Source of the DNA: Eledone cirrhosa
Taxonomy: Eukaryota
DNA length: 64,000 bases
Reading direction: 5' to 3'
NCBI GenBank assembly: GCA_964016885.1
Contig: OZ024756.1
Location: 23,250,001 to 23,314,000, forward strand
A program made the translations under genes and the position numbers. The notes beneath the pieces are model-generated. The model saw nothing but the letters and a program-made list of their open reading frames with translations, made no database searches and was not told where the DNA came from. Below, piece after piece: positions 3,216-60,637 of this stretch. Position 1 is the stretch's first letter. Each line of letters starts with the position of its first letter.

Positions 3216-3599
3216 GGAACGAGTAGGAGCCCGACGGCTGAGCTCAAGCCGTTTCGACGGCTAATTCTGGACTGAGTCCAGAATTAGCCGTCGGGGGCCT
3301 ACTCGTTCCTATTACCCACTCTACCACCCTAAGTATTGAGTACTTTGGTGCGTTATGGTCCACCTGGTTCCTTACCACATTTCTTCCGATATATATATAT
3401 ATATATATATATAACGAAGGAAATGTGGTAAGGAACCAGGTGGACCATAACGCACCAAAGTACTCAATACTTAGGGTAGCAGAGTGGGTAATAGGAACAA
3501 GTAAGACCCCGACGGCTGAGCTCAAGCCGTTTCCACGGCTAATTCTGTACAGAATTAGCCGTCGAAACGGCTTGAGCTCAGCCGTCGGGTTCTTACTTC
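3216..3599. mobile_element. Two copies of fold-back (TA)n-embedded element family F1 (Penelope-like/retrozyme terminus)
   Basis: Shared ~140-bp sequence ataacgaaggaaatgtggtaaggaaccaggtggaccataacgcacc...ccgacggctgagctcaagccgtttcgacggctaattct with an inverted partial copy, flanked by (TA)n or (TC)n. Confidence 0.75.
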
Positions 3600-3681
3600 T
3601 CTCTCTCTCTCTCTCTCTCTCTCTCTCTCTCTCTCTCTCTCTCTCTCTATATATATATATATATATATATATATATAAATA

Positions 3682-3900
3682 AAGGCTCGTGGCTGAGCGA
3701 TTAGAGAATTGGATTCACAATCTTGAGGTTGCGGGCTCGATTCCTGGACCGGGTGATGCGTTATGTCCTTGAGCAAGACACTTTATTTCACGTTGCTCCT
3801 TTTACCTGGAGTTGCGACCGATAGATAGTAATAGCAATTGGAAAGATTCATGGAAACATTGTTTCCTCGGTCCGGTTTGACCTAAGTCGATCGACTGACT
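3682..3900 (+). mobile_element. CORE-type tRNA SINE (near-identical relative at 29280-29495)
   Basis: tRNA-like head plus tgtccttgagcaagacactttatttcacgttgctcc. Confidence 0.75.
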
Positions 3901-4926
3901 ATATATATATATATATATATTTCGTTTCTGAATTTGTTTAGTACGATTCTTTATCTGAAAACCAACCAACCGGAAATTTATAAATTTGTTTAATTTATAA
4001 TTTTATTTATAATAAATTGGAGTGAAAGCAATTGGTGCTGTGTTTCTTATTAGCAACATGACCCTCCCAAAGTATAACAATATATATAAATATATATATA
4101 TATATATAAACATGAGAAGAAAGAAGAATACTGCGTGGTTTCACATGGGTTACATATGATAAAAATAGTCCTTCGTCAGTGATTTTCCAACCATCATTGG
4201 TATTTCATCGCATTAAAAATCATATACCTCAGGTTGGTGCGAGCAATAACCAAAAAACGTTATTGGGACCAGTAAATCGTGTAAAGCGAGGGGGACAAGT
4301 GAACAACATAGAAGGAATAAAGCTGAAGATTTATATATATATATATATATATATATATATATATACAGTGCACAACACTACCACAGTACTACATATGTAT
4401 GTATATACCAAATAGATAAATATCACCTACCTTCAGTTGTCATGTAAACCTAGGAACAATGTATTGACTTATGACATAAACTTACTACTATTACTACATT
4501 TATTACTACTACTACTATAATTATTATTACTAGTACTAATATACCTACTACTACTATATCTACTACCACCGCCACTACTACTACTGCTACTACTACTACT
4601 ACTACTACTACTACTACTGTTGCCGGTTGTGTTTTGTTTAAGGCGCCTGCTGTTTCGCCTCAGCAATCACGAACATAATAAGCTAACAACTTCAACTGAT
4701 TATTAATTTTATTATGGTATATCTACTACAACCGCCACTCATAATCGAGTAAAACTTGGTAGTTTGTAGTATGTACGATGCTTTCTCGGGAAGGGGGGGT
4801 TTTAGGTACCCATGCAGTCGCGGACAACATTATCGACTCTCTCTCTCTCTCTCTCTCTCTCTCTCTTGATCTGGTAGAATATCAAAGATGTAACAGCTAG
4901 AGGGGGAGAGAGAAGAGGTTGGGGGA

Positions 4927-5490
4927 TACTTTATCGACCACGAAAGGCTGAAAGTCAAAGGAAAGCAGGACTGGGGAGGGATTTTGGAGTTGAAACGCTG
5001 AAACCCGGAACAAATAGGGGCTAACCTAACACTCAAGTTGTACTTACTTTATCGACCATGAAAGGCTGAAAGTCAAAGGAAAGCAGGACTGGGGAGGGAT
5101 TTTGGAGTTGAAACGCTGAAACCCGGAACAAATAGGGGCTAACCTAACACTCAAGTTGTACTTACTTTATCGACCACGAAAGGCTGAAAGTCAAAGGAAA
5201 GCAGGACTGGGGAGGGATTTTGAAGTTGAAACGCTGAAACCCGGAACAAATAGGGGCTAACCTAACACTCAAGTTGTACTTACTTTATCGACCATGAAAG
5301 GCTGAAAGTCAAAGGAAAGCAGGACTGGGGAGGGATTTTGGAGTTGAAACGCTGAAACCCGGAACAAATAGGGGCTAACCTAACACTCAAGTTGTACTTA
5401 CTTTATCGACCATGAAAGGCTGAAAGTTAAAGGCAAGGTGGACTACAGGCGGATTTTGGACTTGAAATGCTGAAACTCGGAACAAATACA
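4927..5490. repeat. Tandem repeat, 118-bp unit x ~4.7, derived from a minus-strand SINE segment
   Basis: tactttatcgacc at 4927, 5045, 5163, 5281, 5399. The unit resembles the SINE segment ttatcgacccc-gaaaggatgaaaggcaaag. Confidence 0.9.
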
Positions 5491-5539
5491 GAACGCTCTA
5501 GTGACTCTGCCGAATTGACAGCCTATCGCATTCATACAC

Positions 5540-57509: not shown

Positions 57510-58850
57510 ATTTTTTAAAGCCGCGAATAGAAGCGCCCGAAATAGGATTCCTCTAAAGGGTTCTTGTAGTTACGTTACTCGATAGAGCCCGTAGCTCGGC
57601 GATCTGAGAGTCGCTCCAGATAAAGCTGTTACTTCTCCGATACTATGGACATGTGGTTAGAATGTCTCAGGAAAGAATCACTGGACAGATCTGTAGCTCA
57701 AAGATCAGCGAGTCGCTCCAGGTAAAGCTACTACTTCTCCGAATTGAAATATCACAGCTCTGATACTATGGACATGTGGTTAGAATGTCTCAGGAAAGAA
57801 TCACTGGACAGATCTGTAGCTCAAAGATCAGTGAGTCGCTCCGGGTAAAGCTACTACTTCTCCGAATTGAAATATCACAGCTCTGATACTATGGACATGT
57901 GGTTAGAATGTCTCAGGAAAGAATCACTGGACAGATCTGTAGCTCAAAGATCAGTGAGTCGCTCCAGGTAAAGCTACTACTTCTCTGAATTGAAATATCA
58001 CAGCTCCGATACTATGGACATGTGGTTAGAATGTCTCAGGAAAGAATCACTGGACAGATCTGTAGCTCAAAGATCAGTGAGTCGCTCCAGGTAAAGCTGC
58101 TACTTCTCCGAATTGAAATATCACAGCTCTGATACTATGGACATGTGGTTAGAATGTCTCAAGAAAGAATCACTGGACAGATCTGTAGCTCAAAGATCAG
58201 TGAGTCGCTCCAGGTAAAGCTACTACTTCTCCGAATTGAAATATCACAGCTCTGATACTATGGACATGTGGTTAGAATGTCTCAGGAAAGAATCACTGGA
58301 CAGATCTGTAGCTCAAAGATCAGTGAGTCGCTCCAGGTAAAGCTGCTACTTCTCCGAATTGAAATATCACAGCTCTGATACTATGGACATGTGGTTAGAA
58401 TGTCTCAGGAAAGAATCACTGGACAGATCTGTAGCTCAAAGATCAGTGAGTTGCTCCTGGTAAAGCGACTACTTCTCCGAATTGAAATATCACAGCTCTG
58501 ATACTATGGACATGTGGTTAGAATGTCTCAGGAAAGAATCACTGGACAGATCTGTAGCTCAAAGATCAGTGAGTCGCTCCAGGTAAAGCTGCTACTTCTC
58601 CGAATTGAAATATCACAGCTCCGATTCTAATGTCTCAGGAAAGATTCGATGGACAAATTTTACGGGCACAACCAACCAGCCGGCAGGTGACATAAGGATA
58701 TACCACCACCCACCCCCCATCCCTTGAGCAAGTTGGTTGGATAACATACATGAACTAGGCTGATCTCACTTGGGGAATCAATTGGAGACGGTTGCTCCTG
58801 ACAGGACCGGCTGGAAGTAGATTTTCATGTCTCTGCCCCCATGACCCTCT
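57510..58850 (+). mobile_element. RTE-clade LINE 3' fragment with an internal 123-bp x8 tandem amplification
   Basis: Translates IEAPEIGFL*RVL...LLDR..., then repeated ESLQVKLLLLRIEISQL*YYGHVVRMSQER, then WLDNIHELG...APDRTGW. Confidence 0.75.
57639..58625. repeat. Tandem repeat, 123-bp unit x8
   Basis: gatactatggacatg at 57639, 57762, 57885 ... 58500. Confidence 0.97.
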
Positions 58851-59909
58851 CAACCAGTAAATTTGAGTTGCACCAGTTATTCAAAGAACCAGCCATGTTC
58901 CATAATGTGTTACGTTGAATCTCCCTGAGAACTAACGTTAAATGGTAAATATATTTATATAATGCTCAGCCACTTGCACGCAAATTTCACGAGCAGGCAG
59001 TTCCATAGATCGACTCAACTGGAACAGTTAAAGCAACGTCCACACAAATTTGATGAAAGCAAAAATTAAAGAAAAAAATTAATGATGAGTCATGGAAGCT
59101 GTTTTAATAGTAAAATGCTGAGCATACACATGCACACACACACATGGACAAACACATACACATGGACACATATTGAACACATACACATACACATAGACAT
59201 ATATTGAACACACACATATATATAAATGTACTTGCAGAGACCACACACACACAGAAGAACAAACAATAGTGCTTCCTCACAAGAAAACATTTCCTGTTTG
59301 TTGAAATAAATACAAAACATAACATGGTTAAGAATGTCCGGTGGTAACTAATTAGAAACACGATACAACACACCTCTACGTGCTTACTGCACTGGCTAGA
59401 AATAACAAATAAATCTCCCTCAAATTATGCGCCAACGCATTAAAAAGAAACTATATACTGTATTATTTAAAGTTTGTTTCTAGACTTGAGGAGCATCGGT
59501 CCGTCCACTACTTCTACATCCACTCACACACTGTCCTACGTATGGGTCTGACAGTCTACTTTTAGTTGGAATCCAACTAAAACCGTGTATTAATATATAA
59601 TATATAGACGGCATTTTGACAGGGTCGATAAAGGGTCGGATAGAATGCTTTGAGTTTGAGGTATTCGTTTCGGTTCTCATCCATTCGAGGTCCATTTAAA
59701 AAAAGTACCGATATAGTACTGAAATCGATTCTTTTTCTATATCTCTTTCTCAACTGTATATATATATATATATATATATATATATATATATATATATATA
59801 TATATATATATATATATATATATATATATATATATATATATATATGCTAACGCCGTATTTTGGCTAAAGAAATTAAAGAAATTATTTAGCCTGATAGTGG
59901 GGTTAAGAA

Positions 59910-60365
59910 CCCCACTTGATGAAGGACTAGCGCCCGAAACGTTAAGACCCTCTTCCTGCTATTTCAAGCGTTAACCTAATATATCCTTTCCATATACTGT
60001 ACCGATTGTGTTGTTATTTCTATTTACCTTTTACACACATACATACATACACACACACATATGTATATATATATATATACATATATATATATACATACAT
60101 ATATATATATACATACATACATACATACATATATATACATACATACATATACATACATTCATATACATATATTTTTATCTAAAGACATTTTTTTCCAATT
60201 CCAACCCACCCGTCCCTTCAATCTATCTTATTTCTCATTCTTTCTTCTGATGAAGGACTAGCGTCCGAAACGTTAAGACCCTCTTCCTGCTATTTCAAGC
60301 GGTAGCCTAATATATTCCTTTCATATACTGTACCGATTGTGTTTTTATTTCTGTTTACCTTTTAC
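59910..60365 (+). mobile_element. Retrozyme/pLTR-like direct repeat with two hammerheads 331 bp apart
   Basis: (t/c)TGATGA-aggactagcg(c/t)cc-GAAACGTT at 59916 and 60247, each followed by the same ~100 bp. Minus-strand relatives at 39985-40130 and 52222-52330. Confidence 0.7.
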
Positions 60366-60434
60366 ATACATACATGCATACATACACACACCCAAATATA
60401 TATACATATATATATATATATATATATATATATA

Positions 60435-60637
60435 GGAACCAGTAAGACCCCGACAGCTGAGCTCGAGCCGTTTCGACGGCTAATTCTGGACCTATTCGGG
60501 TCCAGAATTAGCCGTCGAAACGGCTGGAGCTCAGCTGTTGGGGTCTTACTGGTTCCTATTACCCACTCTACTACCCCAAGTATTGAGTACTTTGGTGCGT
60601 TATGGTCCACCTGGTTCTTTACCACATTTCCTTCGTT
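60435..60637. mobile_element. Family F1 fold-back copy
   Basis: Short inverted arm plus full arm and tail, in (TA)n. Confidence 0.8.

Follow-up and report, generated by a model that had tools for sequence, protein, structure and literature searches.

In Penelope-like elements (PLEs), inverted ends with tails, targeting of (TA)n and hammerhead ribozymes are already known, and the formation of tandem and inverted PLE insertions with a one-sided tail has been stated as open (PMC8557442). The subject here is a stretch of 64,000 nucleotides from Eledone cirrhosa (assembly GCA_964016885.1, contig OZ024756.1, positions 23,250,001 to 23,314,000, forward strand), called the window below, and a family of short palindromic repeats found in it, F1. 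The F1 copies are head-to-head, 5'-truncated end pieces of an intact PLE of the Hydra clade. A typical copy consists, in this order, of a tail-less inverted arm, a pivot, a direct arm with the GAAA, stem III and GUC of a hammerhead motif, and an 80-nt tail. It is likely that such copies arise by two reverse transcriptions, which start at two fixed internal sites of the messenger RNA (mRNA) and run off its capped 5' end. Site A denotes the outer end of the tail, site B the outer tail-less end, and x the number of nucleotides counted upstream from site B.

An experimental counterpart is Poseidon of Anolis (PAc) in vitro (Frangieh et al. 2024, PMC11167929), with which F1 shares an AT-rich target and probably also two internal start sites bounding the tail and the cutting and extension of both target strands. 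A dimer is predicted for PAc, and its hammerhead is not needed for insertion (PMC11167929). PAc, however, represents another clade and starts without homology, whereas the F1 sites are followed by TAT, permitting pairing with the target; moreover, in the sections consulted, the PAc account neither traces inverted insertions to the two sites nor mentions run-off at a cap (PMC11167929). The inverted pseudo-long terminal repeats (pLTRs) of Adineta and of Drosophila Penelope share with F1 the head-to-head arms, the tail on one arm and the palindrome at the junction (PMC3846280, PMC2377424). A further probable likeness is an internal promoter with an initiator (Inr) and a downstream promoter element (DPE) inside the repeat, as in Drosophila Penelope (PMC2377424). 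These pLTRs have been read as products of self-priming, possibly on an antisense template (PMC3846280), whereas the F1 data point to two sense-templated complementary DNAs (cDNAs). The third system to be compared is twin priming of L1, where a second reverse transcription is primed from the other target end, the inversion junction is end-joined and an extra G, the mark of cap copying, is found at the 5' ends of full-length insertions (PMC11702581). The second start of L1 varies in position, with hardly any overlap between the two parts (PMC11702581), in contrast to F1 with its fixed start and two arms copying the same 58 nt.

No paper deriving PLE inversions from twin priming, or reporting a cap signature at PLE junctions, was found in the literature searched, most subscription journals being outside its coverage. 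The F1 counts discriminate between models of PLE inversion and name exact start sites together with a likely transcription start. Intact open reading frames (ORFs) of the parent element exist, and the mechanism is therefore directly testable in vitro.

Arms and ends of the F1 copies

F1 is a family of tens of thousands of copies, far beyond chance. In the 3.0-Gb genome a 37-mer of the arm has 16,578 exact matches and a 23-mer of the tail 21,388, with 0 matches for either reversed control. Within 464 kb around the window the exact tail 23-mer is present in 11 of 33 tails, and a crude local extrapolation gives a copy number of ~60,000. If transcribed, these tens of thousands of near-perfect ~60-bp hairpins would offer ready substrates of double-stranded RNA; in other animals, RNA hyper-editing is driven by palindromic repeats (PMC5625713).

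A preliminary description, made from the letters of the window alone, had listed ten F1 copies, and all of them are present at the positions it gave. Its account of the sense arm (GAAA, a 6-bp stem III and the GUC triplet) holds, and so does its observation that the pivot varies between copies. Only five of the ten are typical, and those beginning at 3216, 7529, 31307, 33430 and 40182 depart from the layout it claimed. The tail of 80 nt on one arm and the ends of the copies in (TA)n were absent from that description; nearly all window copies are bordered by (TA)n, and TA runs make up 10% of the window. As it had stated, the 5' core is missing (0 of 10 window copies have it), and the 5' strands of stems I and II are missing with it in all ten. 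Short copies thus lack everything upstream of loop II and cannot fold a hammerhead in cis. The hairpin at the pivot, taken there for stem II, proved to be something else, namely the 3' strand of stem II with a few bases of loop II, joined to its own mirror image.

Both arms were mapped in 236 tail-bearing copies against natural long copies. The main sample (n=143) comprises 113 copies from loci of contig C1 picked by the tail motif and 30 from the window region; the remaining 93 copies, from loci picked for other motifs, were kept separate except in the cap and concordance tests, and fractions of short palindromes are sample-based. A short inverted arm is found in 98 of the 143 sampled tails. 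The two outer ends, sites B and A, are fixed and lie 80 nt apart; beyond each of them the master continues with TAT and the genomic copies with (TA)n. TATA directly adjoins 84 of the 98 tail ends and 86 of the 98 tail-less ends. Of the 196 inner arm ends in the 98 short copies with two arms, 127 lie at x=50-64 (mode 57-58), and the single end beyond this range is a mis-parse. Both arms stop sharply at x=57-62, inside loop II and past the 3' strand of stem II, and tail arms of at least 120 nt number only 9 of 143. The pairing is strongly that of one tailed with one tail-less arm: two short copies have two tails, and no true copy without any tail was found, since the sole pattern match (L117) has a mutated tail. 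The unbiased view of tail-less pairs is that of the 30-copy regional sample.

Stop position, probable twin reverse transcription and its rivals

The base at x=58 is the A of T/C-A-G-T-Y, which is close to the initiator consensus TCAKTY, derived from Drosophila (PMC1538597). In a sister family TAGT(C/T) is kept in loop II while the remaining loop differs. Of the 12 arms that end at x=58, 9 have C as their first untemplated cDNA base, compared with 18 of 86 arms ending elsewhere (Fisher p=3.6e-4). In the genome as a whole, x58 with C and then G/T after it has 749 matches, and with T in place of C 337. Among the first 100 matches listed of each, 44 CG and 23 TG stand at x58 (extrapolated to ~330 vs 78), and one base beyond it 10 CG vs 34 TG. 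For all 36 junctions whose arms both end at x58 with two bases between them, a count by hand gives the next base as C in 35, A in 15, G in 13 and T in 9 of 72 cases; A and G are the templated letters (28/72), and C is found on both arms in 7 junctions and on at least one arm in 28. Five tail-less arms have an extra C of their own at x58, and these arms were therefore made on RNA, not on the first cDNA. Matches to the motif ten element and DPE are partial, dependent on which A is taken as +1, and were not used as evidence. In the contigs of four runs of unrecorded kind, depth changes more than 10-fold near x=40-65 and an end lies at site A; the source sample may be among these runs, and the contigs do not reveal starts.

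In the proposed course of events, RNA polymerase II would start at the A of the initiator-like motif, within loop II of the upstream repeat. As the likely transcription start thus lies within the ribozyme, only its 3' half would be present in the 5' repeat copy of the mRNA. The endonuclease of the element would cut both strands of (TA)n, after which one target end would prime at A and the other at B, on the 5' repeat copy and with the help of pairing at TAT. The cDNAs would run 58 nt (from B) or 138 nt (from A) to the cap, often copied as C, and the two cDNA ends would then be trimmed and joined by end-joining repair, hence a variable pivot. In the minority of long copies and in tandem arrays, synthesis may start on, or jump to, the 3' repeat. 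Mini-tandems, which end at x ~55-61 and resume near the start codon, fit such a run-off and jump on RNA spanning loop II to the ORF. We infer the start site, the cap, the order of events and the repair pathway.

Palindromes of PLEs have been read in print as products of self-priming (PMC3846280), and the corresponding explanation of F1 is that a single cDNA from the tail end stops near x=58, at an RNA end or a block, folds back and is copied to site B, with later central deletions leading to asymmetry. Such an origin is unlikely, though part of the data would suit it. Of 114 copies, 80 could be typed for subfamily variants and 34 could not; the two arms agree in 78 of the 80, where independent templates would give 31%. 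In addition, the tail arm exceeds the other arm in 35 of 98 copies and equals it in 15. Fold-back requires a tail arm at least as long as the other arm, as well as pairing at the junction. The tail-less arm, however, is longer in 48 of 98 copies, and it exceeds its partner by more than 10 nt in 26 while falling short by as much in 5. After removal of eight mis-parsed rows the latter counts become 19 vs 4 (p=0.003); seven of these rows had the tail-less arm longer (four from the window region, L116, L131, L098) and one the opposite (L081), their apparent insert being an internally deleted arm or a poorly aligned sister arm. In L136 and L150 the tail arm has no template for the other arm, and elsewhere it is shorter by kilobases (3.5 kb tail-less vs 1.6 kb in L171; ~16 kb vs 0.3 kb in L228-L229). 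Junctions without an insert have a microhomology of 0-1 nt in 45 of 59 cases, too short for priming; inserts are present in 39 of 98 junctions, and loop-less perfect palindromes exist (L086, L092, L118, L151). Fold-back also leaves unexplained the fixed stop at B, and the five tail-less arms with their own extra C speak against it. Two copies carry different subfamily variants on their arms, L092 and L024, the latter by a multi-base block, as if from two RNAs.

A further explanation accepts twin priming but not the capped start, the stop being ascribed to a structural or protein block, a branch point (YUNAY-like, with the A at x=62) or a processed RNA end. A second stop with poly(A) stutter at x=61-62, a weak internal hairpin in loop II and an AG at x=58-57 that resembles a splice acceptor would agree with it. 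It does not predict a position-specific untemplated C at x58, and structural blocks are expected at stem bases, not within a loop, so that we regard it as improbable. The stutter, read in the cDNA sense at x ~61 where the template has a U run, was noticed in L130, L140, L142 and L008.

According to the preliminary description, cDNA synthesis halts within the ribozyme, and the cDNA then primes itself through the hairpin of stem II. A stem II is indeed present in masters, and the pivots lie within ~20 nt of its 3' strand, yet the predicted product, with loop II kept in the centre, has 0 genome matches (the pattern covering only subfamilies with a youngest-like start of loop II). Furthermore, only 17 of 196 arm ends lie on the 3' strand of stem II or beside it (x=44-51), and a tail arm reaching its 5' strand occurs in 0 of 128 short two-armed copies, which makes this route very improbable. 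Least credible of all is a fixed-length DNA transposon with terminal inverted repeats, of the kind of a miniature inverted-repeat transposable element: F1 is short, palindromic, TA-targeted and of high copy number, but this class was rejected on account of pivots that differ in nearly every copy, a one-sided tail that makes the ends unequal, and a reverse transcriptase (RT) partner into whose ORF the long arms run and whose subfamilies the short copies mirror.

The reading of F1 as two cDNAs running off a capped mRNA has difficulties of its own. The concordance of the arms would be no less expected under fold-back, and here it requires that the two cDNAs share one RNA or one source locus; a shared template for overlapping cDNAs needs strand displacement. 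A second start site is needed for the second stop at x=61-62, and the initiator match is short, rests on a Drosophila-derived consensus (PMC1538597) and is imperfect in most subfamilies. Deletion of palindrome centres after insertion could create some of the asymmetry and of the low microhomology, the TG count at x59 may perhaps be inflated by small deletions in templated sequence, and an untemplated C is a surer sign of an RNA end than of a cap.

We incline slightly towards a broader view, in which twin reverse transcription would be obligatory for PLE inverted insertions and would begin at two fixed sites of a single capped mRNA. As the promoter would start within the hammerhead and the protein would prime on the 5' repeat as well, the majority of events would end early, as strong-stop products with a copied cap. 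If this is true, the genome holds tens of thousands of base-resolution records of the start site and of the two-primer mechanism.

The master element and its hammerhead motif

Some copies extend past the pivot into a 1.2-kb 3' untranslated region (UTR) and then into an ORF with RT and C-terminal GIY-YIG-type motifs. The copies are thus what the preliminary description had proposed in general terms, truncated retrotransposed products of a hammerhead-bearing master with half of the ribozyme gone, and the short ones mirror each subfamily of the retroelement. The master unit of 3,531 bp comprises a 93-nt 5' UTR, an ORF of 717 aa, the 3' UTR, the hammerhead motif and the 80-nt tail. Arrays of 3.53-kb units are present, tail-to-5'UTR junctions number 379, and eight intact ORFs of 717-719 aa are found in 5 of 7 array loci. 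The ORFs differ by 0-5 bases within an array and by 3-26 between arrays, so the family is young. Protein-free mini-units, composed of the ribozyme 3' half, the tail and the 5' UTR to the start-codon region in up to three repeats, were observed in L167, L198, L199, L202, L204, L205, L207 and L218 and look like nascent retrozyme-like derivatives. The 5' end of one array (L227:6826-9900) holds at least 55 tandem copies of a 55-bp piece of the ORF.

The 717-aa protein has RWR at 37, DKT at 117 (neither DKG nor DKA), YRDD at 348, CxCX5C at 572, the VIY...YIG motif of a GIY-YIG-type endonuclease at 591, CxxC at 670 and CxH at 698, and a CCHH pattern is absent. In the Hydra clade RWK and DKT replace GxKF/Y and DKG, and CxCX5C, CxxC and CxH are present with no CCHH (PMC8557442), so the protein carries the marks of this clade. 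Compared by eye with the Hydra-clade alignment, its N-terminal and RT blocks look similar (PMC8557442). Pfam and PDB sequence searches with the 717-aa ORF gave no match; its top homolog (P0001) carries PF01541. Relatives number at least 2,049 among 7,996 scored candidates, the best of them mostly ~40% identical and near 700 aa long.

Insertion into (TA)n, characteristic of the Hydra clade, is observed in F1, and so are the tandem or partial-tandem repeats, the inverted 5'-truncated copy and the optional tail of PLE anatomy. With the Hydra clade, of which Hydra-1_Obim and Penelope-13_HM are examples (Craig et al. 2021, PMC8557442), the master shares the single ORF, the RT with a C-terminal GIY-YIG-type domain, the motif set, the (TA)n target, a hammerhead motif near the 3' end and inverted 5'-truncated copies. 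It differs in length, since Hydra elements are generally shorter than 3 kb (a usual, not a strict limit) and the master reaches 3.53 kb because of its 1.2-kb 3' UTR. Its tail of 80 nt compares with 30-40 nt typical of PLEs, and its non-canonical core, long loop II and stem III with a CTGA-start core and short loops in 26 of 26 listed Hydra-clade motif rows (PMC8557442). Unlike the Hydra-clade references, F1 is present in tens of thousands of copies with a dominant class of ~200-bp stubs. Identity with Hydra-1_Obim was rejected, as length and ribozyme differ.

Masters with an ACCCC strand of stem I followed by a core had been predicted in the preliminary description, and they exist. The predicted core, CUGANGA, is on the other hand rare (11), most masters having UUGANAA or CUGANAA; nor does the core adjoin cggctaattct: it precedes GAAA by 61 nt, with a loop II of ~35-40 nt in between. 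In the master the predicted cut site is at x=17, the G of GAAA at x=40 and the first core base at x=101. Genome-wide counts, from patterns which differ slightly in length, are 2,038 for U3/A8 (UUGANAA), 1,703 for C3/A8 (CUGANAA), 33 for U3/G8 and 11 for C3/G8. The last value is below the ~28 expected from independent changes, therefore no 3-8 covariation is seen, and a C3-G8/U3-A8 covariation was rejected once single variants were counted. All four bases occur at core position 7, which is a free position of the hammerhead core.

The minimum-energy fold of an intact copy has the topology of a type I hammerhead, with pair probabilities mostly of 0.6-1.0 and an extended stem I that ends at site B; its energy is no better than that of shuffles (z 0.0), and copies of two other subfamilies fold differently. 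In the motif stems 87% of cells are paired. Double-sided changes affect three pairs of stem II and are confined to the 3 sister-family rows among 25, so a single event may account for them. Rfam gave no hammerhead among the 150 of 347 window matches listed, and none on the master motif. Two of 98 copies (L158:1508-1606 and L164, of the youngest subfamily) have both arms terminating precisely at x=17, the predicted cut site, which hints at possible cleavage there in vivo. The mismatched-core subfamily (C3/A8, 1,703 arms) has spread widely, which is consistent with dispensable cleavage.

A U3-A8 core in the PLE repeat is shared with the Cercyon PLEs of Schistosoma (Cervera and de la Pena 2014, PMC4209133), where single and opposite-strand hammerhead pairs are ascribed to truncated PLEs. 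The Cercyon hammerheads are minimal dimer-type motifs (PMC4209133), in contrast to F1 with its stem III of 5-6 bp and long loop II.

Window copies and neighbouring repeats

The copy at 60435..60636 (+) has arms of 57/57 and an untemplated junction insert of 8 nt, and as RNA it folds into a single long hairpin of -122 kcal/mol. Its tail, from site B to site A, occupies 60557..60636 (+); in tandem masters the corresponding segment runs on into the 93-nt 5' UTR and the ORF. The copy at 3414..3597 (-) pivots in a perfect palindrome (57/57), and the outer end of its tail-less arm is replaced by (CT)n. It faces, tail to tail across a single (TA)n run, the copy at 3216..3388 (+), in which an inverted tail-less arm reaching x=58, one G and a tail arm from x=58 with stem III deleted are followed by the 80-nt tail, with (TA)n on both sides. 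At 15743..15945 (-) the arms measure 60/61 with one extra A, at 42796..42998 (-) the tail arm is ~64 and the tail-less arm ~59, and at 22591..22779 (+), read by eye, the tail-less arm extends to ~x=57 and the tail arm from ~x=52. The tail-less arm of 33430..33602 (-) reaches x=58 and is followed by C, and its tail arm lacks stem III owing to an internal deletion. In the copy at 40182..40329 (-) the tail arm begins at ~x=52 and the inverted arm is a short stub. The stem III hairpin is recurrently deleted between two direct AGCCGT repeats, more often in the tail arm (3216-3388, 33430-33602, L131, L116, L081); skipping by the RT and later slippage look like alternative causes.

Two of the ten copies belong to the sister family. 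The one at 7529..7746 (no strand assigned) has a tail on both arms and a pivot near the cleavage site, and the one at 31307..31452 (-) is a single tail arm, joined on its 5' side to another repeat (31447-31510 matches 30324-30387).

The element at 30886..31285 (no strand assigned), to which the preliminary description attributed the same logic as to F1, does share with it the layout of a tail plus inverted arms, here a 100-nt tail and two arms of ~150 nt in (TA)n. It represents a separate family, with a pivot upstream of the entire hammerhead-like motif. Further members of this second tailed inverted family, whose hammerhead-like motif has a long loop, are L113, L128, L176, L258 and L261. The long copy L176 has a canonical CTGACGA core, and L128 pivots inside loop II, so this family may have an internal start site of its own.

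Further CTGANGA...GAAA motifs, in other repeat families, were noticed at 4129, 15199 and 15560, 27325, 27664, 36567 and 36742, 44514, 53064, 60247 and 60773, some of them as opposite-strand pairs. A fragment at 14470-14880 resembles, by eye, the DKG region of another PLE RT, and other Hydra-like ORF pieces occur in L037 and L039. A tRNA-related family similar to short interspersed nuclear elements is present at 494-630, 3681-3899, 9259-9405, 29282-29491, 30041-30181 and 62522-62663, with an Rfam tRNA match of 35.5 bits at 9269-9326. A dispersed family of ~190 bp has more than 10 copies, at 8885-9071, 12198-12388, 15243-15430, 25864-26050, 28103-28489 (a head-to-head pair), 32109-32296, 35258-35444, 37638-37825, 42129-42316 and 55511-55699. 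The window also contains a pair of 765-bp inverted repeats of 96% identity (45765-46529 and 49388-50142) and four tandem arrays (688-1461, 4927-5488, 18286-20856 and 57591-58658).

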